This document shows, in pieces, positions 1,643 to 55,552 of a DNA stretch of 64,000 bases; position 1 is the first letter of the stretch, and the number at the start of each line of letters is the position of its first letter. Under the pieces are notes generated by a model, which ran no database searches, was not told the origin of the DNA, and saw only the letters and a program-made list of their open reading frames with translations. This stretch comes from Botryllus schlosseri. Lineage: Eukaryota. The stretch covers positions 28,460,001-28,524,000 of the forward strand of contig CM119372.1 in NCBI GenBank assembly GCA_051294905.1, in the 5' to 3' direction. A program made the translations under genes and the position numbers.

Positions 1643-1725
1643 TTGATGATGTCAGACTTGATTATACTGACTAGACTGGAACACTACAGCTTGCAATACT
1701 AACAGTACAGTACTACTACTACGTA

Positions 1726-14036: not shown

Positions 14037-14365
14037 TTCCCCAAACTGTCGACCACTTTCTTATTCTCAACTGTCCGAAATATGATTTGCAACGTGAGTT
14101 ACTCATGAATCCTGTCACAATCGTAACTTTTCGATTCGCAACGTTAGCTCTTACTTTTGCTTAAACTATTTGAGCCCGTGTAGCCGACTTTGCGATCTTG
14201 TTTTATATTCCTATAATAATGATCCGTATTGTCCACGCTCAACCAATTTCCATAGTATTTTGTAGTAGGCTAGATGGTCATGTCAAACCGTGACGCACGA
14301 GTCTTTTATAGATGATACCTGATGCCCCTAGATTTTTACAATATTAATAATATTAATAATAATAT
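14037..14365 (+). mobile_element. 3' end of a LINE (zinc knuckle, 3' UTR, TAA-rich tail)
   Basis: QTVDHFLILNCPKYDLQRELL resembles the C-terminal half of a LINE CCHC motif; ends in AATATTAATAATATTAATAATAAT. Confidence 0.6.
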
Positions 14366-27792: not shown

Positions 27793-28216
27793 ATGTTAGG
27801 CTGAACGAAATTTTGACCAATGTTAGGGCACGGAAATCATGTTGAAGGTATATATGCGTAGCAGAATTTTACTAGTAATTTGTGGAAAGCTAGGGGATAC
27901 AATCATTAGAAGTCGCGAAGAAGTTAGGTCACTTCTATAAGACTTCTCTAGCTAAAGTCAATACGGCAACATACGTTGAATTGGGACTCAATTCGGTATC
28001 ACTTTCCTTATCGCCGACCTCACTGCAATTGCAGCGATTTAAAAAGCCCAGAAAGTATAATGAGCTTAAAAGTTGCAGCAAAGATCCGATGAATGATGGA
28101 TGACTGATTCGTTGAAGAGGAAGTGTAAGAAAAGTCGCCATTGAGAATGCATTGAACTCTCGAAATTGCCATTGTGGCATTGTCGTGGAGCGCAAAGCAT
28201 AATAAGGCTATATAAG

Positions 28217-28901
28217 CAGGGCATGGTATGGTATGGTATGGCATTGAACGAAATTTCGGTATGGAATATGGAAAAATGCAAGTATGGTATGGTATGGAGA
28301 TTTCCCATGATATGTAATGCTTTTTCCATCCTTCCATACTTTTTCCATACTTTGACAGTGTTGCCAGAATCATGACTTTGATCCTACTTTCGATTTGTCA
28401 AGTTCATTGCATACCTCAGAAAATCGCTCACTGTCTATGTTCATATCTCAAATTGTGATTCATGACTCACCCACCCTGGACGATATTTATTTGAAGACAA
28501 CAAAGTTGCGCAACGCGCATATGAAGGAAAATAATATTAATAATAATTTTTCAATCTAAATATCATAAAAACGAATAATATTCGACCGCTTTCGTGTTAC
28601 AACTTGCATTTCGTTTATCGTGACTTCCACTCCGTAAACTACCTATGGAGTTGTAAAATCGTAGACTCTGACAATGTAAAAGTTACATGAACATTTTGAT
28701 CAATTTGTTGAACTTGTAAATAATTTTCTGCGCTTTGGTACGATTATCATCACGCAATGTCCATTTGACATAACCGCATTGTATTTCAAAGAAGATTGCT
28801 AAGTATGGTATGGAAAATTGCCAAGTATGGTATGGAGCGATTGGGGTGGGTATGGAGTATGGAAAATTTCCATTCCATTCCATACCATATACCATGCCCT
28901 G
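28217..28901. mobile_element. hAT MITE with (TATGG)n subterminal repeats
   Basis: TIR CAGGGCATGGTAT; degenerate TSD TATATAAG/ACTATAAG; duplicate at 62779-63491. Confidence 0.85.
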
Positions 28902-29779
28902 ACTATAAGCACCACTGTCCTATACCTTATCAAAACCATACAATACAATCTGGTATCGCTGCGTTCATACAAATCCCGGTGGATTTCCAGCGGATTTGAT
29001 TGTCGCTATTGTTCATTTTCTGGAGAATGCAGTGCAACCTGTACTCACTCTCCAATGTATGCATTTAATATCCTGTAATCGAATACCGCTATGGAACATG
29101 AGTAGGGCATTGTGATGTGAGGCGTTTCATTTAGGACTGTGTTTTGTCTCATAGGATATGCTCTTACGAGTATCTATATTCTTCGGTGTGTAATTTTTAC
29201 AATGCGTCGTTCAGTGCATTCATAATAAATTGATTTCAATACAGAATACCTTCCGAATTAGTAAAGCTGTGGTATAGAATAAAATCTGTAACGGATATGA
29301 TATGAATCGTGAATAATGTATCATGATAAACGAAATTGTGGCGTTTTCCATTCACAAGATTTTTTTTCAAATCTTATAAGACGATTCCCATTAGGTTGTA
29401 CAGTATCGTAGATGCGAGATCGCGGATGTCTTATTCAGAAATTAAATGCTTACGGAGTACGCTTACGGCAACCTGGAAGCCTTTGAGGAGCCCAAAATTT
29501 TCTCAGAGTCACAAGAACTAAAATCGACTACATTACACATCTAACTACAGTCTACACATACTATGGGTTACTGGTGGACAAAATGAACTGTGTATCAAGA
29601 GTGTTAAATGAACAAAACCCCTAAAGTAGATTTTCCCACTAAACGAAAACATTATAACGAACAGTTATTGAAAATCAGTGTAACTACCTAATCCTGATTA
29701 TAAATATTGCACATAGAATCGGCATCTCAGAAAGACGGACTTTTGATTTCGAAGCCTAACCTTTCGTGAGTATATGCCA

Positions 29780-31100
29780 TTTAACACAGCGTATCATCAC
29801 AACATTCACAGGTCAACTATGGACCGCGCCTAATTGCCTGCAGCCAATGATGTACAAGCGAGGCGCGTTATCACTTATCATATGTATAGAGTTGCGTGTG
29901 TCTTAACCTCCTCGATTCCATGAGACTAGCTCAAGGAAAACTGTGAATTATTCTACAAGGAAATACAATGTTATTTTGATGTTTAACATTGGCTACCCCA
30001 ATGGAGGTTCGACAATAACAATTAGAAATGCTTTTACACTCGGTGCTCTTCCTGGAAATAGCACTGCGGAGACGACCACGGTGGAATAGTAACATTAGGG
30101 TCGGACTAAAATTAAGACCGACGTATATGCCACTGAGGCCGAATCAATGCACGCCTTTACACATTATGCGCAAAAATGAACAATGTAACCTACTTTATAT
30201 TTCAGTGTCGTGGTAATTTTTCAGTAAAAATATCATTCTATCTGCCAAATAAATACATGACAATTCCGCCGTTGTCACAAAAACCACCATGCATTAATTT
30301 AGGCGCTGTGCACTAAAAGTCAGTATATTGAAGCGTGTCTTTCAGGTCCGACGTTACCAATAAATTTGTACCAATTTATTGTCTTTATTCCATTCGAAGG
30401 ATTGGAATGAGTCGTTACAAAGTATCATTGAGACGTGACGGTGGTGACTCATAAATTATTCGTCAAGTCAATATCTTATAAGAGAGAGGTTGTAAACTTC
30501 AGTCATCAATTTCGTTTGAACCGTGGTACAAAATTACAATAATGTGTCTCGAATATCTAGCTGAAAAGTTGGTTACGAGGGTTGAATAGGAATGATGTAA
30601 TACACTACATTACTTTCACTGTACGCGGCCATACGACCATACCGGTACATCACGTGCTGCCATGTTAAGAGTCCCCCTGTTATATGCACTAGCTCAGATG
30701 GATTGCCTGTTGATCCATAGAGTAGTATCGTATGCACATTCTGACCAATGGTGCAGAACCCGATGTGCATCATTCGGATTTTATCTCTAGGGCCAATGAC
30801 GAAATTTGAGTCTTTTATCGTGAAGCGATATTGTCGTGCTTCGGATTGACTCCTATATTTTCGCAATGCCGAACATGATACCATTTTATAGTTAATATTC
30901 AATCCGCTTCCATCTCAAATCATTACAAAAGATTTCTACAGAAGAATGCAAGCAATTTACTTTTGTTTGTCAGTTATGTACATACCGAATGCGAATGTAA
31001 GAATATATTTTTATACATGGAACGGAAAGACCTCATTTGGCCTTCGGAATCCCAACTGACGTTACACAATCGAAGGGAAGGATCTTCAATTACATCTGAT
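29780..31100 (-). pseudogene. Highly decayed hAT (Tip100-like) transposase remnant
   Basis: Degenerate minus-strand motifs (GTLNMAAR, YYI, SRRLRHT) in the expected order; no intact ORF. Confidence 0.4.
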
Positions 31101-31289
31101 ATTTTAATTCAATCTCAGTTATGGATAAACTGATGAATTCATTTGCTCTACCTGAACAATTTTTGCGAACGATTTCAGAAGGCCATAGGCATATAGAGGC
31201 TTGTCGAAATTCTAGTTTCAGATAGTTTCATGGCATGGAAGGTTAAGACTGTTGATGAGAAAAATATGAAATTCGAACTATATATAGAG

Positions 31290-32499
31290 CAGGGGTCGCC
31301 AACTCAAAATAGGTCGCGGGCCACTTTTCCAAATTCCTAGAGGCCGCGGGCCGCATGACATCAATATCGAGATAAAAGTAAGCAGCGCAGTTCAACTATA
31401 GAGATCTACAATCTCTTTAGCTCAACAACCATCGTTTGATAACTCTACGTTATTACAATGCTGTGCTCTCTAACATGGGCGACGGCTATAGTCACCTCAA
31501 AAGAGATTTTTTATTTTATTGAACAAACACAAATACAGCAAAGAGTATCATGATGATCAATTTCATTATATTTTGAACTATGAGCTGTACACGATACCTG
31601 ACAACACTCTGTAGCCGCTAAAACAGAGGTGGCTAACATTTTTGCTATTCACGGCCGCATTTCGATTACTCATGTAGCCTGCGGCCGCATACCGGTGGTT
31701 AGTCGTAATAAACTAGCTGGGGCCAAATATCCACGTTAAACTGTCCATGTCCATTGCCGGTACACTCCGAACTAATCTATCTGCGCATATCGGCTTACTA
31801 TGCGCACCGAAATCGTTAACAGTTATGTTGTAAAGAGCCACAGTAAACCGTTCTCTAGTCGCGCGAAGCGCGGAAAATTTTCATGTTCATGAGTGAATTT
31901 CGTCAATAAATATTAGTATAGTTTCACATATTACTATAAAATATTTATCCTTTGTCGGCCAATGTGATCAGATTCACCGATATAGCTGATGCAGGGGGAT
32001 ATCTTCGAAAACTTAGGGTAGTTATTAAAATTGTCTACAGCCGCATAATTTCCCTTCTACTGCCGCAGATTGGCCACCCTTGGATTAAAGAATCAATATT
32101 GGGGTTAGCTAGACACGGTAGTCTACTTGCTAGACAACTATTTCATCGTAAAGCATGGTCTTTTGGAGAGCCCGAAGTCGTTTTTCAAGCGTCTCTGTCT
32201 TGGCAGTGGTGGGCCATTGCACGTCAAGGCAATATGCCCATTCGTACCAGCAAATTCTTCATCCATGGAATGATATTACCATGCCGAAGCCGTATCAACT
32301 AGTGAGTAATAGTGATATTGGGCACATAGAATTGCTTACTTTGAAAAACAACAACATTATGTTTCAACTGAAATCCATTTCAGCGTTTCAAAATGATTTA
32401 CTAGGCGTTTTTCTGAAATTTTTCAAATCAGGTCGCGGGCCGCAAAATAGGACCTCGCGGGCCGCATGCGGCCCGCGGGCCGCGTGTTGGTGACCCCTG
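31290..32499. mobile_element. Composite hAT MITE, copy 2 (inverted relative to 20953-22135)
   Basis: TIRs; perfect TSD ATATAGAG; interrupts a CAGTGGTTCTCAAAC MITE ending at 32620. Confidence 0.9.
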
Positions 32500-33279
32500 A
32501 TATAGAGTAACAAGTATATGATTAAGACGTAAATCACGCGCAGTGCGAAAAAAATTCGGTCGACCGCTGCTTCGCGCCCGCCTTCTGATGCTTCCACGCC
32601 CCCCAGTTTGAGAACCACTGCGCCGGAGATTTCTTCGAATTTTTGAAATTATGTGCAAAAATAATTCTAATCTATAGCAAACGCTCAATAATCTAAATCG
32701 GGCGAAGTTTGTACATTTTTTGCAAATCAAAATTGCTCTCATGCCCGCAATCAATATCCCCCGCTATTCGCTTTACCCGACATATTGCGTGCCTTGCAGG
32801 CTGAATTCGGTTTTGCACAATACGTAGATTGATCGCAGAGAAGAGCAGTGATGGAGATGCCTGTGTGACAATGCAGTTTTCAAATCCTCGTTGTCTTCCT
32901 AATCACAAGCGAGAAATGAACTCCTTAAGAAGTCATGTTCATGTTCACGTTTACAAGTTCGAATTACAAACATACTCATCCAGGCATCCACATTGCGATT
33001 GTTACGTATCGTGCCGGCACCGCCGGTAAAATGTAGGCTCGGGGCGCAACGTTACGTTACAGGCGACGAATTTGAGAATTGAGAAGTAAAATTTATTAAT
33101 TCATATCAGTTAACAAATTTCCCCGCCTGTTGAGGGTATTATCCCCGTTTGTTGGAACTATAATTGAAATGCGGGTGGCTCTGCCAGTAGCACTATTGAG
33201 GTATTACTATCCTCACACGTGATATTACACGATATGCGTGGAAATGCTTTCGGCATTCTAGTATACGCCTCTACGCCTC

Positions 33280-33842
33280 CGTATTTGTTAGTGGCGATCG
33301 TGATTGGCCTCTTTGACGCCACGGTTAATTACATCGACAATGTGGTCGTGTGCAGACTTTAATGTCAAGCAAATCTTTTGAAATTAAGCGCAGCCCGAAG
33401 TTTAAACGAGATCGCAGCAGGCAAGTTATGTGGTAGCATGAGGTAATTGCTGAAAATTCAAAACCTCACACGGAAGCGGAGAAAGTTCTTCATCCGGCCT
33501 GCACTAAAATTTTGACAAAATGTCTGGGACCAAAGCTGAGGAAGAATTGAAAACGATTCCAATGTCAAATGATACCGGTCGTAGACGTATTTGTGACATG
33601 CCCGCAGAGATAAAAGATGCCCTCATTTCTTTGAAGCAGAGCAAAGCTTACTTGACTGCTCCGAAAAGGTAGAAGTACTTCGATCAGAGACGATCTCTGT
33701 ACGACTGTGGTTGCTGCTAAATATTCTGTTAGTTTGCCGGTGCTGTAGGCCGAAAAATGCTTAGAACTACTGTGCTATTGTGCCGCGAACTATTTTTCAC
33801 TTTCAAAGGTCGCAACGAGGTGAAAAGGGTTAATAACCACTG
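33280..33842 (+). mobile_element. Deleted Buster-type hAT remnant
   Basis: KPHTEAEKVLHPA and LKTIPMSNDTGRRRI in different frames; TIR GGTTAATAACCACTG. Confidence 0.75.
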
Positions 33843-34047
33843 TACCAAACTATACACGAAATTCACCTCGCGTGGTCAGTAAAAGCAAATTGATCTGCGA
33901 TAGATATGGGATCAAAAATATTTAGTAATATTTGATCCTGCTACAGCCTACCCTCGCACAGCATTAAACCCACAAATTTGAACCATGTATCTTCAGGAAA
34001 CCAACATTGACAGACAAACTCTTACGCTAGAATTCATTTACCTAGAC

Positions 34048-34167
34048 CAGACCTGGGCAAAGTGTGGCCCGCGGGCCAAATGCGACCCGTGAAGCTATTC
34101 TGTGTTGCCCACCAACGTATTTTCTACTTCTCATTCGGCCCACGGAGGAAAATAATTGCCACCCCTG
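34048..34167. mobile_element. 120-bp deletion derivative of the 25727-27120 MITE family
   Basis: Same termini; perfect TSD ACCTAGAC. Confidence 0.9.
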
Positions 34168-34379
34168 ACCTAGACGAAGAAAAATAAACCTCATGGGCAC
34201 CGTACGGATAACATACGGAGTTTAGAGCTTGACGGCATCCGCAATATCTTACTTGAATATGTCGCTGCATCGAGAGAAAATACCGCAATTCAAATAAAAA
34301 AAGTCAACAGAGCCTACCGAACGAACAACTAAAGACGTCTTTATCCATCTATCATGGATTCGTCCTATTTCCACCTGCT

Positions 34380-34750
34380 TCCAAAAGCAATTGATTTCTG
34401 CGGTCAGTGAGTGTTACGACACAGTTAAAACTATCATGATATATTCTGTTTGCGCGAAAAATTATCGAGATGACAGGTTTCGCGTCGTCAGGAAAAGGAG
34501 AAGCCGTTCGCACTTTCATATGTATGACTTGAAGTCTGTTTTTATCAAAACACGCCAACATAGTTTGTGCCAACAGCAGTACTTCGTGTATCAAGTGAAA
34601 GTAGTACACTGAAGTAAAGCGATCACTTCATATTTCGAAATTTTATGCTTATGACGTCATATTGGGTGCTAACAATTACCCCCGATGTGTGTCATCCCAA
34701 AATACCCCGCTTTATTACAATATGAATATACTATTGAATTCGGTATTGTA
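34380..34750 (+). mobile_element. Degenerate Penelope-like 3' fragment
   Basis: CAKNYRDDRFRVV...VFIKTRQHSLCQQ, homologous to 3100-3500; hammerhead core decayed at ~34675-34710. Confidence 0.8.
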
Positions 34751-35048
34751 GAACGAAGTGTCTTGGTTACTTAGATACAACGCAATAATCGTTATCCGCC
34801 TACTGTTAAACAAGCTCCTAAAATCCGGTTGGCAAAATAATACAAAAGCCCTATTGTCTACTTCGTTTTCAATGTAATGACTAACATATGGAATCTAATG
34901 GTACATATTTCCTTAATATTAGAATATAAGGCGGCATCTTACAACGAATTTCACTCGTCTGTTTTATTCGACTGCTGTGTATGGTAAAAATGTGCGCAGT
35001 AGCAATGTGTGTAATAGCAATAGTTTGAATAAAGGTTTGGCTATGTGA

Positions 35049-35055
35049 TATATAG
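35049..35055 (+). promoter_or_regulatory. Candidate TATA box of the peptide gene
   Basis: TATATAG upstream of a possible short non-coding exon (weak donor at 35093, acceptor ..CATACAG at 35403). Confidence 0.3.
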
Positions 35056-35437
35056 CTGAACTGAGTATTCAATGATAACTCAATAATTTCTGGTAGACGT
35101 TCGTTTTATATTCTTTCAATAATCTCAGAAGCTGTCGTTGTACTCTGTCACTCGGTTTGAAGTGGCATGCAGATATTTCTACTTATACTTCAAACTTGTC
35201 CAAATGCTAAATTCGTCATTAGTCGATGTTCATGTTCTTCAAGTTTATCGGTCATCAACATAGTTTACTGTCAGCATTTCTTATGGAGTGGACTATGCCG
35301 GTCCTATACATTTCACCTGCACCGTGTACATACACGACAGTGTCAATTATCTCATTCATCCCTCTATCTCCAAGACAACTCCATTGTTTTATCACGCATA
35401 CAGATAGGAGATTTGAATTTGAAAAATAACTGACGAT

Positions 35438-35523
35438 ATGAGGGGACTAGTACTTGCAACTTTTCTGGTGCTGGCTATGGTGACATCGAGCCATGCATGG
35501 CTTCATGTTCACTTTCATTTTGG
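35438..35523 (+). CDS. Plicatamide-like peptide precursor, coding exon 1 (signal peptide + WLHVHFHF-G)
   Basis: MRGLVLATFLVLAMVTSSHA|WLHVHFHF(G); hydrophobic signal with S-H-A at -3..-1; donor GG|GTAAGA, phase 2. Confidence 0.85.
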
Positions 35524-35948
35524 GTAAGATTTATCAATATACATATCTTCTATCATAATTGATCTTTGGAAACGCCTCGCACATTGCTCCAAACGCCTAC
35601 TCCATTCCATATAACAGATTTATGACATCATCAATATTGGTCGGTCGTTTAAATTCACTAACAAGCGACCCTCACGTTCCGACATAACCCATATGCGATT
35701 GCAAGATCGAGCGGAAGTTGAAAGCAAAATGAATAGGCGCTATGTTACGCTTTATTTACTCCGCTTCGTTATAAGGCCGGAAAAGATTGACCTGACTCCC
35801 CGCACTTACGATCTTAATTCTTATTAAGACACTATTACTTCAATCGAGTCGCAGTGATTCGTGACATTGGCAAAATACTTTTCCACTTTCCATAGGTGCT
35901 ATTAATGTCCACTTAATTTACTAGGGTTAATGTTTGCTTACTTTGCAG

Positions 35949-36047
35949 GGATGAAGCAGGAGAGCCTGGCGAACATGAAAAGCCGGAGGAGCACGAGGGT
36001 GAGAGGCATGAAGATGTTCATTTTCACTGGCGTCCTGCGAGTAGGAG
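35949..36047 (+). CDS. Precursor coding exon 2
   Basis: Acceptor TTACTTTGCAG, 99 nt, (G)DEAGEPGEHEKPEEHEGERHEDVHFHWRPASR(R); donor AG|GTAAGA. Confidence 0.85.
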
Positions 36048-36465
36048 GTAAGATTCAACGATATATAAATATTTGAATTGTACCATTGTACAAAGATTGT
36101 ATCGGTCGAAACATCTCGTACATTACCTTAGATGCCTCATCTATTCCTCGCACCAGATATAGTCACCGTCAATATGATTTGGTATAGGTCGCTGACGACC
36201 AACCGAGGGATCGTCAGCGCATTCTGGTAAACCAGAAGTTGAAACTAAAATCAGAGGGAGCTCTGTGACATGTTATTTGCCTTGTTCTGTTATCAGACTG
36301 GAAGAGATTGTGCTACCTCGTCTTAGAAACTCATAATTTTCATCATTGAGGCATTATCATATTAAAGGCACGCGAGTTTCGGGACAATGGCTTAATACTT
36401 TTGCGCATTCCAGATGCCAATGTGTCCACCTAATTTACGAGGGTCAATGTTTGCTTACTTTGCAG

Positions 36466-36521
36466 AGATGAAGAGGGAAAGCACGAGGAGCACGAACATG
36501 AGAGGCATGAAGATATTTCAG
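36466..36521 (+). CDS. Precursor coding exon 3
   Basis: Acceptor TTACTTTGCAG, 56 nt, (R)DEEGKHEEHEHERHEDIS(A); donor CAG|GTATTA. Confidence 0.8.
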
Positions 36522-36586
36522 GTATTATTCCATATTGTTTCTAAAGATAATGCAAATCCATCATTTTCGCTATACCCTATTCACAG

Positions 36587-36651
36587 CCATGCTGAGGGAT
36601 ATCATCCAGCAACATCGTAACGACGGGAATGCGGCAAACTCCTTTCAGTAG
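36587..36651 (+). CDS. Precursor coding exon 4 (to stop)
   Basis: 65-nt intron ending TTCACAG; (A)MLRDIIQQHRNDGNAANSFQ*; the four exons total 306 nt = 101 aa plus stop. Confidence 0.7.
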
Positions 36652-36990
36652 GAAGAATGCAGTCTTGATTTAATATCTCAAACCGGCGCAATCATCGGAT
36701 GTGATTAAGAATAGAAAAAATACATCATGTAATTCAAAGCAACGTGATATATTTGCTTCCTACCTTCGGGTGTTCTATGAAGGACTGAAATATTTCTGAA
36801 ATGGGTTATGACAGAGAGAGAGAGAAAGTATTTATTTTCATCCAACCGAAATACCCAACAAACTGGCAGCAATAACAGTGGTACAGAAAATAGGCACGTA
36901 CTGGATACGGTATTAAATAGGAATGGTCGATCCGACCTTTCATATAAACTATATAGTCTGATCCCACCCGCCTCAAACATCCCTCTACAC

Positions 36991-38090
36991 CAGGGGTGGG
37001 CAAACTACGGCCCGCGGGCCGCATGCGGCCCGCAACACCGTTCTGTGCGGCCCGCGAGAGTCTAAAAAAAGTTTTTTTTAAATATTGATAAAATGCAGTG
37101 GTTCTCAAACTTGGGAGCGTAAAAGCATCAGAAGTGGGGCGCAAAGCTGAGCTCAACTGAAAAAAATGTTCGCGCTCCGCGCGATTTACCAACAATTTCA
37201 TGATTCTTGCTCTGTATTTAGTTTGAATTTCACATTTAAAAATCTCTCATCCATAGTCGTAACCTTCCATGCCATCAAACTATCCGTTAGGTTTGCTAGC
37301 AACCTTGTTGCATTTTGTGATATGACGGTGAGGGGTCGCGAAATCTTTCATCATTACAGGGGGAGGGGGCGTATCTTAATAAGTTTGAGAACCACTGTTC
37401 TAAGGCAAATACTTCCTATATTATTTTTGATGTTTAATTTCTGGCGTGACAGCTTGATCTCAAGGCCCACACAGTTTGAAAGGTTTCAACTGCTAAACAT
37501 CACAGATATCCTAAACGAGATTGACATAATTCGGATCACGAGTAGAATTTCAGATTGGCCACTCCAGCTTTATTTATTTTAGTGATGTGCTTATAAAAAA
37601 CGATTCGCGCGTATCTTAGGTAGATTCGTTTTCTGTATGCGTAGAATTGGGGCATTTATATTTTATCTACACATAGTAAAAGCGTGTTTGAAGCTACCAT
37701 GGTTATGATTCTGTGAGCATTGTGTGTCCTGGAACTGAACCAAAAGAGAAATTAGTAAATGTATGAACAGATCGCTGCTCACAGATTTAAATTTCAATCC
37801 TGTTCTAAGAATCGGGACAACCGACTTTCATCTCTATAGTTTTGACAAATTGGTTATTGAGCTCGACCAGACTATGAAATCTCGCCACTATCTTTCTGAC
37901 GCGTGTACGATATCACCAAAGCAATGTTTGGTTTGTTTCAATTAAGCACATATATTATCTCCATGTCCTCACTATATAATCAAATACCAATATTGCGTTT
38001 TGGTTTATAGTCTCATTTTATATAGTGCGGCCCGCGAATGGATTCAGATGTTGAATGCGGCCCGTGAGCTTAAAAGTTTTCCCATCTCTG
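36991..38090. mobile_element. hAT MITE with nested MITE at 37096-37397
   Basis: CAGGGGTGGGCAAA / TTTTCCCATCTCTG; perfect TSD CTCTACAC. Confidence 0.9.
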
Positions 38091-39423
38091 CTCTACACAG
38101 ACAATTTTGACCATCAGGTTGGAGTACAGCAGTACAGGCTCGGATTCACATACAAGCAAGGCTGTAGAGTCGCTAGATTTTACTACCGACTCCAAAATCC
38201 GACTCCGACTCCAGGCGTTTTCATTATACCGATTCCAACTCCGACTCCACGTCCACACATATTCAATATACCGACTCTGATTCCGGCTCTGACTCCGACT
38301 AGTTTTTCAAGATAACTCCGACTCTGACCCGACTCCAACGGTATTACCAATTTACTTCAAAAATTAGATGTCGCAGTGACGGTTAAATGACTATCAATAA
38401 CCATTAGGCATGTGCAAACATATGATTAACGATGGCATACAAAGTTGTTTTATTGTGACACAAAAGTATTCTTTATGCAATTAACATGAAAGAATGCCTT
38501 TCAAAATATCCTTCCTTTTTCATGTTTTATAACATGGACTCTCTAATGCCCTTATCTGTATGAATCATTCAACGATGACATAGATCCAATCCTGTATCAA
38601 TAAAATGTAGATAAAACAATCTTGGTGTAGCTCTTGTGTATGAGTCGGCAACTAATACGGCATGTAACTTACTAATTTTCTCATTACACACTATACTGAT
38701 TACAAGCACACACACTCTCGCTACTAGTAAACATTCGTCAGAAACGAAATTTGGGAAGTAGTCAAATAGCTTATGTCTATCTACATGCACTTAGTCAAGT
38801 ATTCAAGGAATAGGACTTGCAGTCTTTCTTAGTCATTTGTTCGACCCAAGCAACTGAACTACACTACAGATATTTTTAATTTTGTCCAGTGGGAAGCAGC
38901 GTAGGGTGTGTGGCCATGGACATTGAAGATGTTCGACATTTGCTGTCTTGAGGGATTATTTAATGGAAGTATCAAGTATAAAAAAAAACTTGAACATTAG
39001 TTACACATCTGCCAGATAATATAAACATTCCGTAATTTCCTCAGAATTGTGTCGCGAGCCGGATGCGGCCCGCGAGCCACATGTTTGATACAACTGGTGT
39101 ACTGTACACTGTACAGTAGGGTTGTTCAGATTTGAAAAATTGTCCGGAAACTGCGTTCGCCGTATTCCAAATGATAGTTTAGTATATAAAAACACTTTTA
39201 TACGCGATTTTGGTCATCTTCATCCTGACCTTCCTTCCCCTCACAGCCCCCAAAGATCCACTGGGCAATTCTCCTTACTATACGTGGTATGTATGGTTGA
39301 CTATGTCACCGGTTTATTGCTTTGTGACGTTATCAGATGAAAACGGCAGTTTGGAGATAGGATTTTGCAATAAAATAAATATGTTTTTAAAATTGTACTT
39401 AAATGCAGTCCTATAGAGGCCAG

Positions 39424-42400
39424 TAGGGTTGTCCAAAATTTGAAAAATTTCGAAAATGCTGCGTTGTAATGTCTTATTCTATAGATTATTGATTAAAAAC
39501 ATCAACAAGCCTGAAAGAAGCTCTCAGGAACGTCGTTAAGATTTCTTACAAAGCGTTTGAAAGTAGCTGCCAAAGAGTGGGCGGGCCACCGACGGCGAAA
39601 TTGCAACTAGGCGGGCAATGACGAAACCACGATTCTTGATTGGGTAATCGGTTATGCTTCAATGATGACGGCGGCTGTCAGCTCTGATTTGGGTGCTTCA
39701 CCGTGTTTGACAGAAGGAGTAGGTTTTGCTGCTGCTGAGTCTGTTGGTGACGGCTGTAATACTGTAAAAGCGTGTTGTGGTTTGATGAGTCAATAGTAGT
39801 AATGTAACAGTGGTTCTTCGAATGTATCAGTTGTAGCAGTAGTTTCTGTTTTGTGGAGGTCGAGTCTGTTAGTAGAGACGGGAATTTGTAAAGCGCATTG
39901 TGGGTTGATGCATCAATAGTTGTAATGCAACACTTGATCCTTGCTCAATGTTTTAGTTGCAGCAGCATTTTCTGTTCTGATGAGGTCGATTTTGTTAGTA
40001 GTGGTTGTGGTTATGTACAAGGGCATTGTGGGTTGGTGAGTTAATAGTCGTAATGTAACACTTGTTACTTAAATGTTTTAGGCGTAGCTGTAATTTATGA
40101 TAGAAGGCAAAAATATTACTGTCATGGCAGAGGCAAAACGGCGGAAGACTGTGCACTTGCCACAGAGAAGAACAAGATCTCGATCTGAGCATTACTTGGT
40201 CGGATATGCTTGCGATTACATCTGTGGCTCGAGATTACCAACCTTGCGAGAAGTAATGAGTTACTTTCTGCATCTGAAAGACCATTGCCCTCAGTCAACC
40301 CCTACTCGTGAGCTATGTAATGTGGTGGTTCATCATGTCATGACAGTGTGGCAAATGGCGAGAATTGCCACAATACTTAAAGGAAATGCGGTGAAATTAC
40401 TTGAAAAACTGAACAAAAAATATATTTTTCTGAAGGCGACCATGAAACGGGAAAGTGATCCCAAGGGTAAGAGGAAAAAATTCACGGAAGATTTGGACAA
40501 GTTGTGGGATATTGGAAGTACAGATGCGATAGCAATAATACAAAATGACATTTATCTATCACATGATAGAAAGCTCGAAGACATTGCATTCTATGAAGAT
40601 CAACAGCAATCTCGCAAATGCATAATGTTGGGAAGAGACAAGATTCTCGCTAAAGACATCGAAAAGAAAACAGCAACCATGGCGGATAGAACTGTTAAAA
40701 ACATTCAACATGACTCAAGTGATGACTATGTTGTTTTAGCATCTTCTTCATCTTCAAAAGAGGGTGATAGTTTGAGTTCAAGTTCTGATTATGATGCTGA
40801 TGTTGGTCTTGGCACCTCGACAGCCATTAAGCTGATGGCACCTAAAAATATTATGAATAATACCCATGTGTCCCAAGCTCTGGATCGATTGCAAATAACA
40901 GACAACAAGGCAACAATGCTGATCGGAGCATTTATTACGGCTTGTGGCGGTGACATAGCAATGTTCTCTCTGTCAAGATCTTCGACAAAGAGAGCCAGGG
41001 AAACAAATCGTCTTGAAATTTCCAAGGATATTTCAGAAAAATTTGCAGAAAATAAACCTCAACATGTTGCTATTCATTGGGATGGAAAGCTCACAAGAGG
41101 ATAGATTAGGAAATCGGTATGAGGCTCTGTCAATTGTCCTATCTTGTCATCCTCAATACTCAGAAGGAAAACTACTTGGCATTCAAAAGATGCAAAATGC
41201 TGCAGGTCAGACGCAAGCAGAAACCACTTTCAACATAATTGAAAGTTGGAATATAAAAGATGCTGTAACAGCTTTGGTTTTTGACACTACAGCAAGCAAC
41301 AGCGGCTGGAAGAAGGGTGCGGCAAAGATTCTTGAAGACCTTCTAGGAAGGAAGGTGTTCTACCATGCATGTCGGCACCATGTGTATGAGCTGGTAGTGA
41401 AAGACGTTTGGAAATCTTTATTTGGAAAGGCCACAACTGGACCAGAGAATGCATGGTTTGCCCACCTTAAAAGGAACTGGAGCAGTCTTGACAGGGAACA
41501 GCAATTCAAGACTCTGACTATTCCTCTATGTTTTGCTGAACGAGCTGCAATGATAGTTGATAAGTTCAAGCTACTGTTGAACAGAAAAGATTTTTTCACA
41601 CGGGATGACTACAAGCAATGTGTGACTAATGCTCTTGCTCTTCTCGGTGCAGATGAAGATATACGTCATCACAAACCTGGTGCAGCACACCATGCGAGAT
41701 GGATGGGTACAATTCTGTATGCTCAAAAGATGTTCATGTGGGCCGACCAATTAGATTACAAATCTGAAGAAGTTGAACTGCTGCGCCGCTTCAATTTATT
41801 TTTGGTTCTCTTTTATATCCCTGCGTGGGTGGATTCAAGCATTGGTCGTGATGCAGCTGGTAATGACTTGAGATTCGTTCAGCACATGTTGAGTTATAAG
41901 GAATATGATGAGCAAGTTTCCACAGCTGCTTCACGAAAGCTTTTGAAGCACGACTGGTATATTGTTGAGGAAACCGCTGTATACGCCTTGTTTTCACCGA
42001 CGGAAAGCAAGGAAACCCGGGAAAATATGGCAAAGGCGCTCCTGCAAGTAGAGCGAACTTCCAGTTTCTGAAGGGGCCCACCCTCATTGAATGCAACTAT
42101 ACAGATCAACAAGGACAGTACGTTGTCTGACCTTATTGGGCCCCAGTCGTGGTACATATTTGAAGTTTTTGAATGCTCTGGGGATTGGCTGCGTCAACCG
42201 GTTGATGATTGGCACTTTTCAGATTCATTCAATAAAATGAATTGCTACGTTAGTTCTGTCAAAGTCGTTAATGATGCCGCAGAAAGAGGTGTCAAGCTAA
42301 GCACAGACTATGCTGCAATCTTGACTGACAATGAACAGCAAAGAGACAGTTTGCTTCAAGCTGTGGAACAGCATAGGAAGATTTTTGGAGACAGCAGGAA

Positions 42401-43128
42401 GTCTACTCTTATCAAAGGCCAGTGATCTGCAACACTGACCCTGCGATATACTTTTTAATGATGCCTTTTGTAAATAGCATTTTTGCCTTTGTTAAATCTT
42501 GAATAAAAAGTGTAATATGCGATCGTTTTAGAGAGAGACGTCGACTTACCATAACAAGCCATAAGGAGAAATTGACTACTGGTTTGCAATTTATGAGTTA
42601 CAGTCGTTGTCAACTGGTATGTTTTAGAAGGCTCGAAGGTAGCACGATGCATGCATCTAGTTCATTCTTATCTTAATTGGCCAAGCTCCTGTGCAAGAAG
42701 TAACAAAACTGTTATACACAGTGTTCAGGTAGAAAATATATTACTGGATCGTTATGCTGTTGTCGATGGCAGCATTAACAACGTCAATTTACCATATCGC
42801 CAATGCCACGAACAGAAATGGCTGCAAACCAACACAACAGAGTAGAACGAAATCGTGACCAGCAATGATCACAAAATCAGTATTTCAGCCAATCAGTAGC
42901 TTATTATTACAGGTTCCAACCAATCAAAATTCTAGGTTCGTGATTGCCCGCCCACTTCATCGATTCCCCGCCCACATGCAGACGGCTACTTTCAAACGCT
43001 TTGTAAGAAATCTTAACGACGTTCCTGAGAGCTTCTTTCAGGCTTGTTGATGTTTTTAATCAATAATCTATAGAATAAGACATTACAACGCAGCATTTTC
43101 GAAATTTTTCAAATTTTGGACAACCCTA
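39424..43128 (+). mobile_element. Full-length hATm-like transposon, copy 1
   Basis: Perfect 144-bp TIRs (39424-39567 / 42985-43128); imperfect TSD sharing GGCCA. Confidence 0.95.
40124..42425 (+). pseudogene. hATm-like transposase, nearly intact
   Basis: Motifs GSRLPT, IHWDGKL, LVFDTTASNSG, ACRHHVYEL, RDDY, PGAAHHARWM, VVNDAAERGVKL; one frameshift at ~41095 and one TGA at 42069-42071 where copy 2 encodes Arg. Confidence 0.9.
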
Positions 43129-44252
43129 GGCCACATGCATCTCAGTTTTGCTCTGCACAACCTGTCTATCATGTGAATGGGAAGCATGTCTTGGTTGCAC
43201 GGTAGACAATAGACATCGACTTGTTTTGAATCGTACATTGAAGAAGCGCCGTTGGGTTGCAAGTCGAGAACAAATGCAGATATTTTCTGCTAGTTTTCAG
43301 CCTGAAGATATTATATACTGGTATTTAATGTCAGTAATACTTTTCTGAACTTCAAATAATCTGTAAAATTCCGAGTTATCTTGTTTTATGGTAGACTGCA
43401 ATTAGGGCCCTTTTCATACCGGATTTACGAAACTCTTTCGGGAACAAGTTCCGAAACAGGCGATGTTCACATAGAGAAAAAATTACCGGAACAGTTCCGG
43501 AAAAAGGACGCGTTCATACCTATTTAGAGTTACCGCGAACTTTTGTTCACACAGGTCGTGTTTTCGGTAAATTCGCGGGAAATTATGGCCAGTATGAACG
43601 CGATTCTCCGTAACTGTTGATAGTTACGAAACCATGTCTGTGGGGTGTTCCAGTTGTAATATGCTTGTGGAAAACAATGTGGGAGAGGCATATACGTGAG
43701 ATGCGGAGAAGTTGGCTCCAACTTTTAGCTATGGGATGTTGCGGATATGCCTTCTCGAAGTGCATGGGACTCTATACTCAATATCTGTATCAGTAATAGA
43801 GCCCGAGTATGTTCCTGACTTGTATATTATCAACCGAAGCTGAGAGCAGAAACTGAAAGCCAGCAAAGAGGATAGAGTCCTGGGATGAAAAGAACCACCG
43901 ATCAGGCGATCACATCTGCGTACGAGCCTACGAGGTACGACAAAGTCAGTTTATCTTTGTGATTGCTGTATAATGGTTTGGGTAAATCTAATCTTATGTA
44001 CACTGTACAGAGAAACCAGGGAAATCGAGAAATTCGTGAGAGAAACATTTGGTATACTCTGCGACGAGCTTCGAGACCATAACGAAAAGCAGCAAGCAAA
44101 TTACACGAACTCAATTTCTCTTGCTTGCTGAGTAGCTGTCGCTCTTTGGCGGCTAGCCAATGAAGCCAATCGTTTATAGATCCAGGTAAACATATGTATT
44201 TTAAGAATGCAACTGTCACAAGTTGATTTTAATAAAAATTGCTGGTGCCTAG

Positions 44253-45454
44253 TAGGGCTAGCCACAATGATTCGAATACTCGAATCTGAATCGAGTATTA
44301 ACATAATTGATTCGAGGCGAGTAGTAAAATACTTCTTTTCGAGGGTTGCCGGTGAACCCAGCCCTCGGTAAACCCAGCCCTCGGTAAACCCAGCCCTCGG
44401 TGAACTCGGCCCTCGGGAAATTTTGTATTCACGGATTGAGTTAATCGAGGGAGATAACGCGACGGTGGTGGGAGGTGGGATATTAGGGTTGGGGGAGGTG
44501 GGATATTAGGGTTGGGGGAGGGGGGATATTAGGGTTGGGGGAGGCGGGATATTAGGGTTGGTGGAGGTGGGATATTAGGGTTGGGGGACGTGGGATATTA
44601 GGGTTGCCGGAGGTGGGATATTAGGGTTGGGGGAGGGGGATATTAGGGTTGTCGGAGGTGGGATATTTGGGTTGCCGGAGGTGGGATATTAGGGTTGCCG
44701 GGGGTGGGATATTAGGGTTGGGGGAGGGGGATATTAGGGTTGCCGGTGAATACAAAATTTCCCGAGGGCCGGGTTCACCGAGGGCCGAGTTTGTGAGGCC
44801 GCGCTTGCGCAATCGTGATCACGTGATCTGATCACGCCATGACTGCGTGATCTACGCATGCCCTGACCTCCTTACAAGATCGCCAAATCAGTTGATAATA
44901 ACATTATTAGTTTAATAATTCATAATAATACTTGTTAACACACTTAATTACAAAAGTTCCCGGGGGCCGAGTTCACCGAGGGCTGGGTTTGTAAGGCTGG
45001 GTTTACCGAGGGCTGGGTTCACTGGTAATCCTTTTCGAGTAGGTTACTGAAATTATACTGAAAGTTGATTTACTAACGAGAATTATACCATAGTTTTGAT
45101 AAACTTTACCACTGAGTAAACCTTGAAACCTTGATTGGCCGTGTCGCAACATACGAGATATAGTGCAAAGCTACGAACGTTGCTGGAAATAACACATTTC
45201 CGAAGTCATGACCATCCCATATAACACTGTCAAGCAGTGCAATGAAAACGGTATGGTCGAAAAAACATTAAAGTATCTTTAATGTGACGGACAATAGGTG
45301 TTATGTTCTTTATGGTGGCATAAAAAGTAGCCTACACATTTGAATTTTTGTCATGGTACATTGTGTTGTGATGTCATCATGATGATACTCGACTCGAAGC
45401 GTAATAAGTGATTCAGAATCGAATCATTCAGGTACTCAATTTTGCCCAGCCCTA
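44253..45454. mobile_element. hAT MITE nested in the Harbinger
   Basis: TAGGGCT/AGCCCTA termini; TSD GTGCCTAG/GTGCATAG; uninterrupted inverted relative at 51427-51942. Confidence 0.85.
44344..45030. mobile_element. MITE with 9-bp TSD (Mutator- or Merlin-like) carrying a telomere-like minisatellite
   Basis: TSD CTTTTCGAG; TIRs with 16-bp AACCCAGCCCTCGGTA repeats; ~12 copies of a ~23-bp GGGATATTAGGGTTGGGGGAGGT unit at ~44470-44745. Confidence 0.85.
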
Positions 45455-45853
45455 GTGCATAGTAATATTTCTATATTTGTCATGGCGGAATGTCAGCCAG
45501 TTTTTGCGTAGCATACCACTGCAAAAAGGTCAGACAAATTTGGTCTTGAATCATTATGTCAGAAAAAGAAGTCTGAAAGACCAATTGTTCTTGCCAAGTA
45601 GGCTACTTTCTGTCTCAAAAGTAAGACCCAAATTGATGGAAAATAGACTCAAAACTGGAAACTGAGCAGTCAACATAATGACTTGACTCGAGTCATAGAA
45701 CCATGAATCGAACTCAGCGCTCTGCTCGATGAGTTGGACTCGGATTTGACTCGGTGGTAAATTGAAAATGACTCGACTTTGATTTAGTCAAAACTATTGA
45801 AGTGGGATCGACTTGTGACTTGGTTACAACCCTGCTCACTTATTTTAATGAGA

Positions 45854-46006
45854 CCAAATTTGTATATTTTTGTAGTGTAGTCAGACATGTACATCAACCT
45901 ACTCATTTAGTTACTTTTAGTTACCAAAACCCAAATTTGTATATTTTTGTAGTGTAGTCAGACATGTACATCAACCTACTCATTTAGTTACTTTTAGTTA
46001 CTAAAA
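45854..46006. repeat. Two-copy 78-bp tandem duplication
   Basis: CCAAATTTGTATATTTTTGTAG...TTAGTTAC repeated at 45854 and 45932. Confidence 0.9.
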
Positions 46007-46125
46007 CTAAGTAGTTCTAGTTGGGGATTTGAAAAAGTGAATAGTTTCTGGTTCTAGTTGCGGATATTTGAAAGTGAGTAGTTCTAGTTCTAATTGCAGA
46101 TTTTGAAAAGTTGATAGTTCTAGTT

Positions 46126-46707
46126 CAGGGCCGGCCAACCCGTGGCCCGCGAGTGAATTTTCGAAATTAGTAGTATTATCAAAAATGCATTGCACAGATT
46201 GTGTATTTGCAAGGCCAATCAAAAACTTGATTAGTCTGGCCGCAACACTTGAGATGTGATGACTGAAATATCAGTTCCGACGCATTGGTAGATCTATGAG
46301 CCAGTCACATTTTGGTAGATCTTCGTACACTACAATAAAGCAGAATACTTTGGGATAGATTTATCAAAAGTAAAAATTTTCTACACGGTTAGCGCAACAT
46401 GTTGTCACTCGATTTCTTGCTTTAATATTGTTACCCCTTTGTGAAAATGAAAGAACGCCTAATGTATCAGATTGAGTCTAACAATATTCTCGGTTACAAG
46501 GCAAAGTGTCCTTGAACATATGCGACCTTGCGTTTGTGCTCTCAGAAACACCGTCGACTTTGAAGCCTTGGCTCAAAATGATTGCCGCATGTTGGACGAA
46601 GCTTTCGATATCGATATTTTATTATTAATTTATCACTTCAAAAGTGGCCCGCAAAATAGTTCGTCAATCGAATGTGGCAATTTGGCTGAAAAGGTTGGCC
46701 ACCCCTG
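46126..46707. mobile_element. hAT MITE nested in the Harbinger
   Basis: CAGGGCCGGCCAACC / GGTTGGCCACCCCTG; perfect TSD TTCTAGTT. Confidence 0.9.
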
Positions 46708-48690
46708 TTCTAGTTGCTAGTTTAAAAAATTGAGTTGTAGTTAAAATTGCGCATTTCGGAATTCCAGTACTTTGTACAAGTCTGAACGCTGTGGGTGGAT
46801 AGAAAATTACCACAGCAACATTTGTACCAAACATGCATTTGCTGCATTCAAGTTTTTCAGGATGACTTCATGATTGGGAGCCAGAGGGTTGCGTACTAGC
46901 CTACATAACTGATGACGCAGCCTATCCCTTTCAGCCCCGGCTCATGAAGCCTTTTCCCTGAAACACAGAGCATAAGCTAAAGCTAGTTTCAAATATGTAA
47001 TATAAATTTCCTTTCTGCTACCCTTAAAATTCACAATTGCTTTTTCAGAAACTTAGCAAAGCACACTTGAAGGTTGAAAGATTTTAGTCGACTGAAGGCG
47101 CGGTGTTCGGCTTTGCTCAGAAACTGCAATCCACTAAGGGCAGAATGATACAGAGGATGGTATACGCAATGAAGACAAGACCTGGTGGTGATCCAAGTAT
47201 CGCTGGCCCAGACGTCGGAAATGCCCTGTGTGACTTTCTCAATAAACAATGCTCTAGCTTAACCAGATGTGTTTGTGCTGTTTCATTTTATTCATGAGAG
47301 AAACTATAACTTAATGCACACTTGCACAGTTCCACCATTTTCATCAGTATCCTCCATCTATATAGACCTGCGAAATGATCAGATTAAGTTACACTTGCCT
47401 AACATAACAAAGGAATGACTTGGTTGCAACAAGAACATGAAGGCATAGGGTAAAACCAAATTATGGCTTGGATGATGTACGATGGTTTACCAGCCCGTTG
47501 GTACAATTTCAATTTTGGTTAGTGATTCAGAGCTAGGTACATCATTCTCTGCTGCCACTATCAAGGCAGATGTTACTGAATCCCCTTTTCAGTATGCGTA
47601 TACCACGGTGACTAACCTACGCACAGCATATCCGTAGTTAGAAACTTGCCTTTGATGTAACAAATTTGGTAAGGGTTAAGATCACCTACCAAATTAGTGT
47701 TGAAGTCCTAAAGTTTTCAGGCAACTCACCCAATACTGCATCATTTGGAGATGGTGTTCTACCTTTTTAGCCGTGCTGCTCTGTTTACAAAACCTCACAA
47801 AAAAGAAGCTAGTAGTCAGTGACTAGGTATTGTGAGCTTACAGAATATAAATCCAAGAATAATGCATTCCCAACACCATTACACAAGAAGACCAAAATGC
47901 CGCACGTAGCTGACCTCGAAATACAAGCAGCCTGAATGAACAGCGCGTTACCGTAACTAAAAGTTTGATTGACAGCGTTCCGGGAACCCAGCTGCGCCAT
48001 TCGTGTTCATACTCGGTCGGTCCCGTAAAAATCTCCGAAAATAAGCGCGTTCATACCGCCCCGAAACACCAGTGTTATGCTCACATAGAGGGGTTCCGGT
48101 AAACATTTTCGAGAAATGTTATTCCCGGAACCCCGGTCTGAAAAGGGCCTAGGTTGAAGAAGATTGTGTGAAACAAAGCGGAGAAGGGTTTTTCTGGACC
48201 CATCCTGAACAAGATTCAAGTCTGCTCACTATTTGGTCTGGTATTCTGGTCCCTATTTGGTCGGATATTCATCTGAACGTATTAGTCACTCCAAGGCACC
48301 TACTCTAGATCAGGTTCTACAGTATTTGCTATATCTAAAAGAAAATTGCCATAAGACTGCCACAACGCAGGTCTGTGTTCTTCTAAGTTAGAAGTTAGTT
48401 TAGATTGCCAAAGTATAGATTAGAACAAGAATACCTATAAGGCAAGCGCAGAACATTGTGTAGATGCATTGTTTCACACATTCTTCAACTGAATTGCAGT
48501 CTACTATGGCGCGCTTCGGCACGCTGTCTGAGTATAGACTACGTCGCGTTCCCTCTAGGGTCCGCAACAGCGAGTCGGCGGGTACGTTGGCTAGCACTTT
48601 ATTGTACGACAGAAAACATCAGCGGACTGACGGTAAAACATCGGATAAGATAAACAGCGTTGGTCGTACAGCGACGGTCGATCGTCAGAT

Positions 48691-48780
48691 AAAAAGGCGG
48701 CGGCACTCGTCATGTAAAAAGGCGGCAGCACTTTTCAGGTAAAAAGGCGGCAGCACTTGTCAGGTAAAAAGGCGGCATGT
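48691..48780. repeat. Four-copy ~25-bp tandem repeat
   Basis: AAAAAGGCGGC(A/G)GCACT unit. Confidence 0.8.
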
Positions 48781-49720
48781 ATCTAACGAAGGTCTTCTTT
48801 AAATAGTCAAAATCCAGACAGATTCGCGCACAACGATCAGCAATGATGGGTAATTGATGATCCGGCGTCGAGAGGGTATGTGCAGTACACCAATCCACCA
48901 TACTACAATAAAATAAGATAACTCGGTATTTTACCTATGATTTGAAGTTTGGAAAAGTATTACTGACATTACATACCTTTAAATAATATCTTCTGGCTGA
49001 AAACTAGCAGGAAATATTCGCATTTGTTCTCGAATTGCAACCCAACGCATCTTCTTCAATGTACGATTCAAAACAATTCGATGTCTACCGTGCAACCAAT
49101 ACATGCTTCCCATGAACATAATAGACAGGTTGTGCAGAGCAAAATGGAGATGCAAATGGCCTTAATAGGACTGCATTTAAGTACTGTACAATCTTGAAAA
49201 CATATCTATTTCATTGCAAAATCTCATCTCCACGCGGCCGTTTTCAACTGATAACGTCACAAAGCAATAAACCTGTGACATGGTCAACACTGCAGATCCA
49301 GTATTTAGGAGAATTGCCCCGTGGATCTTTGTGGACTTTGAGTTGAAGGAAGATCAAGATGAAGATGACCAAAATCGCGTAGAAAAGTGTTTTTATATAG
49401 TAAACTATCATTTGAAATACGGCGAACGAAGTTTCTGGACAATTTTTCAAATCTGAACAACCCTACTGTACAGCATTAAAGCACTGACTGGGCATTTAAA
49501 TACCGGTACTGCGTTCGTTAATATCAAGTCATACACTCGAATTCAATCTGGGGTGATTATTCAAGTGTAACTGCAGCAAGAGCGCGTGTTGCGACCTTGT
49601 CATTACACATCCGCTTTCTACTAAACACCTAACGGTTTGAATATTCGATATTGGTGCGCTCGTTGCCAATCCGTCCGGTGTCGATCAAGTTTACTGGAAT
49701 AAAGAAGGTTCTCCACCAAG

Positions 49721-55420: not shown

Positions 55421-55552
55421 TCTGCAACTTGTGCCTGACAATGCAACACTGATCTGCAACGTACTTTTTTATTGTCTTTTGTAAATAGTGCTTTTCGCCT
55501 TCATTCAGTTGTGAATAAAAAGTGTAATATGCGTTCGTTTATGGGTGAGACG

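Follow-up and report, generated by a model that had tools for sequence, protein, structure and literature searches.

Does a spliced gene for a small His-rich peptide precursor lie in the 64,000-nucleotide stretch of contig CM119372.1 that was analyzed here (positions 28,460,001 to 28,524,000, "the window"), and how is its product related to plicatamide, a free octapeptide from the ascidian Styela plicata? Such a gene, at 35438..36651 on the plus strand, had been proposed in a first-pass annotation of the window. It is a real, previously unannotated protein-coding gene for a small, predicted secretory prepropeptide, and its source is a stolidobranch tunicate, probably a styelid. As to function, we tentatively favor a precursor of a defence or metal-active peptide with the N-terminal segment as its active part, and we give this reading slightly less than an even chance.

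When the exons are joined by script, the proposed four-exon gene is reproduced exactly, with the same exons and the same protein. It has its start codon (ATG) at 35438 and its stop codon (TAG) at 36649-36651, and the joined coding frame of 306 nt specifies a protein of 101 residues. The donor sites of introns 1 to 3 are GTAAGA, GTAAGA and GTATTA, and all three introns have an AG acceptor. The gene had been described as invisible in the open reading frame (ORF) track, and this is correct. No stop-to-stop open frame of at least 90 amino acids spans it on the plus strand, so that an ORF track would miss it. Four public RNA runs (X5, X6, X14 and X23), which are from the same organism but from four studies, were aligned to positions 35200-37000 of the window. 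Run X23 was picked by its species label alone, not for any known content of this locus. The features of the gene are listed here with the evidence on which each is based.

35372..35437, plus strand: 5' untranslated region (UTR), minimum extent, from the start of a spliced X6 contig at 35372
35438..35497, plus strand: exon 1, codons 1-20, predicted signal peptide (sequence reading, hydropathy)
35498..35523, plus strand: exon 1, codons 21-28, core WLHVHFHF, and the two first bases of the Gly29 codon (sequence, paralog conservation)
35524..35948, plus strand: intron 1, GT..AG, phase 2 (248 raw X23 reads; X5 and X6 contigs)
35949..36047, plus strand: exon 2, with the last base of the Gly29 codon, a Glu/His-rich acidic module, the second motif VHFHW, and RPAS-RR (sequence, RNA)
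36048..36465, plus strand: intron 2, GT..AG (375 X23 reads; X5, X6 and X14 contigs)
36466..36521, plus strand: exon 3, second Glu/His-rich acidic module (sequence, RNA)
36522..36586, plus strand: intron 3, GT..AG, 65 nt (291 X23 reads; X5 and X6 contigs)
36587..36651, plus strand: coding part of exon 4, conserved C-terminal tail and stop codon TAG (sequence, genome search)
36652..36742, plus strand: 3' UTR and poly(A) site (A-run of an X5 contig after 36742; end of an X6 contig at 36738)

The three splice joints (35523/35949, 36047/36466 and 36521/36587) occur in the RNA exactly where they had been placed, and a poly(A) end is seen in addition. The X6 contig (459 nt) is spliced and extends from 35372 to 36738, while the X5 contig (384 nt) ends as an A-run beyond 36742. 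Two hexamer variants, AATAGA (36710) and AATACA (36719), are found upstream of the poly(A) site. Read depth in the introns is zero or near zero. The region 35372-35437 is free of ATG, and the ATG at 35438 (context GACGATATGA) is thus the first in the transcript. In X23, 3189 of 12,895,792 reads fall on the mRNA of about 0.46 kb (reads from near-identical paralogs being counted in), which places the gene family among the strongly expressed genes. In none of the four runs does a core variant reach the listing threshold of 10%, and therefore WLHVHFHF is the core form that is seen in RNA. Among the X23 variant sites in the coding sequence (CDS), nine are synonymous and three are non-synonymous, as counted by hand from the variant table.

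A few further observations concern splicing in X23. A minor joint from 35497 to 36466 (6 reads) is not of the GT..AG type. Variant joints near 36517 are interpreted as paralog or allele differences. Hundreds of reads have loose ends at 36047, 36464, 36467, 36521 and 36584 and lead into exon versions that are absent from the assembly; 467 reads carry an alternative exon-2 end, H-I-H-V-H-P-A-S-R-K. These exon versions indicate that the sequenced animal expresses further alleles or paralogs, some of them with a second clean His-alternating motif before a basic site.

Is the gene a single occurrence? The 495.5-Mb assembly was searched with the DNA of the gene and with exons 1, 2 and 4, and the 264 kb around the window were searched by local tblastn. 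Six intact genes and one fragment were found, all on CM119372.1 (40.6 Mb; abbreviated C2) at 28.42-28.73 Mb and thus within 0.31 Mb. No family member was found elsewhere in the assembly; one exon-1 match (E = 4.45) is spurious. Four young copies are 97-99% identical and start at C2:28495438 (the window gene), 28529582, 28627518 and 28732518, the fourth being read from loci L003 and L013 only. Two older copies start at C2:28423127 (plus strand) and 28451623 (minus strand) and show 76-79% identity over the gene. The fragment, at C2:28457813, consists of exons 3 and 4 only and has an in-frame stop. Searching the genome with exon 2 returned six copies, and with exon 4 seven copies, one of which has an in-frame stop. 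Exon lengths (86 or 89, 99, 56 and 65), phases and the open frame are kept in all six intact genes. Introns 1 and 2 are about 70% similar in secondary blastn matches, and exons 2 and 3 cross-match. Exon 3 with its upstream intron is thus an old internal duplicate of exon 2 with its upstream intron.

The protein starts with a leader that has an n-region MRG with one basic residue, a hydrophobic stretch of 12 residues and a c-region T-S-S-H-A, with the hydropathy peak at residues 3-10. From the small residues at -3 and -1, we infer cleavage after Ala20. The predicted mature part has 81 residues, among them 13 His and 22 Asp plus Glu, but neither Cys nor Tyr, and its isoelectric point (pI) is 5.3. 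In exon 2, a second motif (VHFHW in the window gene, VHEHL and VHAHL in the two older paralogs) is followed by a dibasic RR, which reads RRK in a paralog and RTK in one intact paralog.

The predicted leader is directly followed by the pattern W-[L/F]-H-V-H-[F/L/I]-H, with W21, H23, V24, H25 and H27 invariant in the six genes. Three outcomes that the first-pass annotation named as refuting it (a lack of spliced transcripts, homologs without a conserved core, and a non-tunicate source) are not observed. The individual cores are WLHVHFHF-G and WFHVHFHI-G (two genes each), WFHVHIHC-G and WFHVHLHNCW (one gene each). Position 8 is accordingly Phe in two genes, Ile in two, Cys in one and Asn in one, but Tyr in none. 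In five of the six, the core is followed by Gly and then by D-E; the gene at C2:28423127 has N-C-W and then D-E. A DNA pattern for W-[L/F]-H-V-H-x-H has six matches in the 495.5 Mb, all of them in these genes, compared to three for the reversed control. The more general motif (hydrophobic-hydrophobic-H-hydrophobic-H-hydrophobic-H) matches five times among the 528,000 six-frame codons of the 264 kb, each time in exon 1 of the family, while 20 shuffles of this region gave a mean of 0.15 matches. The computed charge of the core is about +2.3 at pH 5.5 and about 0 at pH 8. The young copies encode only two proteins, which differ exclusively at core positions 2 and 8, and the remaining three CDS differences among them are synonymous. 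In this one lineage, the pattern is suggestive of core diversification.

Selection was analyzed by comparing the ratio of non-synonymous to synonymous changes (dN/dS) between three divergent paralog lineages, which differ by 14-16% in the CDS. For the whole CDS, dN/dS is 0.28-0.43, which indicates purifying selection on the coding frame. The leader is the most conserved part, with 18-20 of 20 residues shared among paralogs. For exon 2, dN/dS is 0.16-0.25; values for the tail are unreliable due to few synonymous sites. The core has changes at three to four of nine positions between lineages.

Which function may be attributed to the product? In the reading that we favor, the leader would be cut after Ala20, exposing a mature N-terminus W-[L/F]-H, after which His and hydrophobic residues alternate. 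This would be an N-terminus of the X-X-His type, which, when free, binds Cu(II) and Ni(II). The N-terminal segment would be an active short peptide, switched by pH and metal, and might act on membranes as described for plicatamide and the clavanins. The computed charge shift from +2.3 to 0 would correspond to a switch of the kind described for His-rich clavanins. The Gly that is present in five of the six genes may be the amidation donor. The Glu/His-rich anionic remainder would be a neutralizing, metal-buffering pro-region, in parallel to the posterior peptide of the clavanins, which is acidic. By our reading, the gene would add a further variety to the His-rich precursors of defence or metal-binding peptides in tunicates.

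Several known systems can be compared. Metal-dependent antimicrobial peptides of the amino-terminal Cu(II)- and Ni(II)-binding (ATCUN) type or rich in His, such as the histatins, have a His at N-terminal position 3. His3 of the predicted N-terminus and the H-x-H pairs resemble this and suggest assistance by Cu, Ni or Zn. There is, however, no evolutionary relation, and the motif depends on the predicted signal cleavage site. Clavanin and clavaspirin are His-rich peptides of Styela clava haemocytes. Passages of PMC8719109 describe their precursors as a signal of 19 residues that is followed by a propeptide (10 residues), the mature peptide (24) and a posterior peptide (27). The mature peptides are C-terminally amidated, according to passages of PMC8719109 and PMC10608444. 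The likeness, compared by layout only, consists of a signal, a His/Phe-rich peptide, a Gly and a posterior peptide without an intervening basic cleavage site; amidation and pH dependence of the clavanins have their predicted counterparts in the Gly donor and the charge-switching core. In contrast, a clavanin is a cationic amphipathic alpha-helix of 23 residues after a propiece of 10 residues, while the candidate peptide has eight residues directly after the leader, a beta-strand-like alternation and a charge of about 0 at pH 8. Also, the follower comprises 72 residues and has an internal duplication. No clavanin precursor was among the library matches of exons 1 and 2. Styelins and botryllin, the morula-cell peptides of styelids, are described in passages of PMC9966394 as pre-propeptides that are constitutive in cytotoxic blood cells and are cleaved to a short mature peptide. 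That of botryllin is 37 residues long, and its net charge is +11. Compared by description, the core found here is short and near-neutral, and the uncut protein is strongly acidic.

Some results weigh against a short active peptide cut from the N-terminus. Signal cleavage after Ser17 or Ser18 also satisfies the -3/-1 rule and would abolish the X-X-His N-terminus. Neither a basic nor any other known cleavage site follows Gly29, and in the paralog at C2:28423127, N-C-W takes the place of x-Gly. The Tyr by which plicatamide is defined at position 8 is encoded in no gene of the family, and the window protein is free of Tyr altogether. The core is no better conserved than the rest (proportion of non-synonymous differences, pN, 0.13-0.22 versus 0.10-0.15), and every copy retains the C-terminal tail of 21 residues. 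Exons 2 and 3, which encode the acidic part, have a dN/dS of 0.14-0.25 in most comparisons (exon 3 has 0.73 in one of three). Thus, the acidic part is not free to drift, and the "pro-region" has a function of its own. Considering this purifying selection together with the second motif VHFHW and the conserved tail, the acidic follower may be more than a discarded extension.

Searches for homologs also fall on this side. Libraries that hold proteins from Styela clava, Ciona, Molgula, Clavelina and Oikopleura contained no relative, which is weak evidence given queries of 33-44 residues. Neither the 44-aa frame around exon 2 nor an exon-2 alignment of three paralogs found a relative among the longer library proteins; the latter had 903 word-sharing candidates, none with E <= 1. 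When the 34-aa frame of exon 1 was compared to 1.84 billion representatives by HMMER, the single match (E 3.3e-4) was an unrelated leucine-rich repeat-like protein of 567 aa and was rejected. Pfam assigned no family to the three exon peptides. In more general terms, the libraries searched here can lack short multi-exon peptide genes even when these are among the most abundant transcripts.

The main alternative is an uncut acidic protein of about 81 residues. It would be secreted or stored in granules, would bind Zn, Cu, Ni or Fe, and would serve as a buffer or carrier of metal in the blood of the tunicate, with the N-terminal His block being just one more binding site. The high content of His and acidic residues (13 His and 22 Asp plus Glu in 81 residues, pI 5.3) fits such a protein. 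So do the low dN/dS of the duplicated Glu/His modules (0.14-0.25 in most comparisons), the presence of the tail in all copies, the dibasic RR that is not kept (RTK in one paralog) and the lack of a recognized cleavage site after Gly29. It is less well reconciled with the young copies, where the sole amino acid differences fall into the N-terminal core. This core, hydrophobic and aromatic unlike the rest, forms the very start of the predicted mature chain, and that it resembles a free octapeptide known from the same ascidian family would have to be a coincidence. We consider this alternative unlikely, though well worth keeping in mind.

A self-assembling or cross-linking material protein would exploit the same alternation in a different way. 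It might form beta-sheet fibrils upon deprotonation of His in sea water or upon Zn binding, and might serve in clotting, tunic repair or encapsulation. Designed heptapeptides with alternating His and hydrophobic residues form Zn-dependent amyloids. In line with such a role, His alternates strictly with L, V, F and F in the core, the charge changes from about +2 at pH 5.5 to neutral at pH 8, a second motif VHFHW occurs in exon 2, and transcript abundance is very high. However, the pattern spans eight residues only, and the second motif of the older paralogs (VHEHL, VHAHL) includes an acidic or a small residue. Repeats of the type found in structural proteins are lacking, and most of the chain is strongly acidic and likely to be soluble. 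A material protein is therefore improbable.

Slightly more improbable still is a hormone- or neuropeptide-type precursor that would be cut at the dibasic RR (RRK in a paralog) into two or three signaling peptides. It would account for the predicted signal peptide, the acidic spacers, the Gly after the first motif and the RR after the second, and the exon-wise modules. However, the dibasic site is lost in one intact paralog, and there is no Gly-basic amidation site. The very high abundance in bulk RNA and the recent tandem amplification suit defence or secretory products better, and likeness to any Pfam family is lacking.

Is the gene, then, a plicatamide gene? The comparison with ascidian peptides presupposes a tunicate source of the DNA, and this holds. 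On contig C9, two GT2 (PF13632) matches are followed on the same strand by two GH6 matches, which lie 3.3 kb and 20 kb farther downstream. The best matches of the GH6 exon are GT2+GH6 proteins, first the cellulose-synthase-like protein of Styela clava (81%), followed by those of Molgula tectiformis, Ciona savignyi, Clavelina, Ciona intestinalis and Oikopleura. According to the abstract of PMC7464555, only tunicates have a cellulose synthase with a C-terminal GH6-like domain. The two GT2-plus-GH6 cellulose-synthase-like loci (C9:15025585-15029719 and 15068570-15088831, minus strand) are about 43-59 kb apart. Ascidians are known to have one CesA gene; the arrangement would represent either a second copy or a GH6 gene that is distinct from a neighboring GT2 gene. 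COX1 was not found in the 495.5-Mb assembly, and the GC content is about 40%.

For the comparison, the structure of plicatamide was taken from passages of PMC3039461 and PMC8719109. The candidate core and plicatamide both span eight residues, in which His occupies positions 3, 5 and 7, and positions 1, 2, 4 and 6 are hydrophobic or aromatic. Both have His at position 3 of a free N-terminus, which is predicted in the present case. The hosts are also alike, being tunicates, and Styela is the nearest named relative according to the cellulose synthase match. Identity to plicatamide is 4/8 for the window core (His3, His5, Phe6 and His7) and 5/8 for the WFHVHFHI paralogs. Position 1 is Trp here but Phe in plicatamide, and position 8 is F, I, C or N but never Tyr, so that the dehydro-3,4-dihydroxyphenylalanine (dehydro-DOPA) end that defines plicatamide cannot form. 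Moreover, plicatamide is an isolated peptide, while its counterpart here is known from the gene and RNA alone. The position-for-position alignment in the first-pass annotation thus stands for His3, His5, His7 and Phe6 and for the hydrophobic pattern (6/6), but not beyond an identity of four to five in eight residues and not for Tyr8.

It had also been suggested that Tyr-ending paralogs would be the direct plicatamide precursors. Such paralogs do not occur among the six genes, and a DNA pattern that codes exactly for plicatamide has no match in the 495.5 Mb. A relaxed Tyr-ending pattern has six matches in the genome, none of them in the cluster, compared to 24 in the reversed control. Paired Tyr-ending matches on contig C1 were considered as a second family and rejected; the one inspected is a polypyrimidine tract before a fibrinogen-domain exon. 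This fibrinogen-related-domain (ficolin-like) exon (locus L045, C1:27191950-27192450, minus strand) has a twin about 55 kb away, an apparent tandem duplicate.

That this gene or a paralog in the genome is the direct precursor of plicatamide, with the last core residue converted to decarboxy-dehydro-DOPA, is therefore very improbable, even though His3, His5, Phe6 and His7 match and the source is a tunicate near Styela. Besides the missing Tyr8 (0/6) and the outcome of the pattern searches (exact, 0 in 495.5 Mb; relaxed, 6 versus 24 in the control), the Gly that follows the core predicts amidation rather than decarboxylation. The window gene is not a plicatamide gene. We read it as a relative in kind, possibly the homolog, of the plicatamide precursor of a sister genus. 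The proposal of a plicatamide-family precursor is partly supported. What stays is a strongly transcribed gene for a predicted secreted protein with a His-aromatic core in a tunicate, while Tyr is absent and one paralog lacks the Gly. The label of a ribosomally synthesized and post-translationally modified peptide (RiPP) has no basis beyond the possible Gly-dependent amidation.

In the literature searched (titles, abstracts and passages), no plicatamide precursor gene was encountered, and the core peptide words are not in print there; the single text match, a beta-peptide written with "h" prefixes, is irrelevant. Passages of PMC4282715, on the topic of tunichrome and a ribosomal precursor, name no gene.

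A transcribed non-coding region or a chance open frame, to which the short exons and the lack of homologs in any library searched might point, has a negligible probability, as the frame is open and the phases are identical in six paralogs despite CDS differences of 14-16%, dN/dS amounts to 0.28-0.43, the leader is near-invariant and ATG 35438 is the first in the mRNA.

How did the family expand? The gene is carried by a segmental duplication.

27988..59738, no strand: segmental duplication unit carrying the gene, about 32 kb; its blocks recur twice more in the 264 kb at 97-99% identity, with insertions between them

Near-identical ORF pairs are spaced by about 34.5 kb: 28020-28397 (minus strand) with 62582-62959 (minus strand), and 28803-29078 (plus strand) with 63393-63668 (plus strand). 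They belong to no Pfam family, and their spacing marks the period of the gene-bearing duplication. The young copies at 28627518 and 28732518 are separated by exactly 105,000 bases. Together with the identity of 97-99%, this raises the question of whether some young copies could be scaffolding artefacts or haplotypes that were left uncollapsed, and not genuine tandem duplicates. Within or beside the duplicated unit are long related open frames that are broken by frameshifts (40094-42425, plus strand, 336+370+117 aa; 53688-55420, plus strand, 212+164+224 aa). They resemble copies of a mobile-element protein, with no Pfam match above threshold. Elsewhere in the window, arrays of 16-24-bp units with telomere-type words (CCCTAA/TTAGGG-like) are found at 12850-13259 and 44350-44742, in opposite orientations. 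A 260-aa frame at 14332-15114 (plus strand) has a weak match to zf-RVT (E 2.5e-4, below the Pfam cut-off) and is probably the remnant of a non-long-terminal-repeat (non-LTR) retroelement. Two frames of 141 and 194 aa at 580-1651 (minus strand), which have no Pfam family, look by eye like the remnant of a hAT/ZBED-type transposase.

The biosynthesis of plicatamide and of other dehydro-DOPA peptides in tunicate blood cells has been an open question since their discovery. The cluster described here provides a concrete gene family from a tunicate close to Styela, expressed and conserved, whose predicted mature proteins begin with a core similar to plicatamide. It is tempting to speculate, although we consider it rather unlikely, that this cluster represents the styelid gene family behind plicatamide-type peptides and that the present species has shifted to Tyr-less, probably amidated octapeptides that bind Cu or Zn. 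If this were true, plicatamide, and perhaps also dehydro-DOPA peptides similar to tunichromes, would be ribosomal products that are trimmed and modified after translation.

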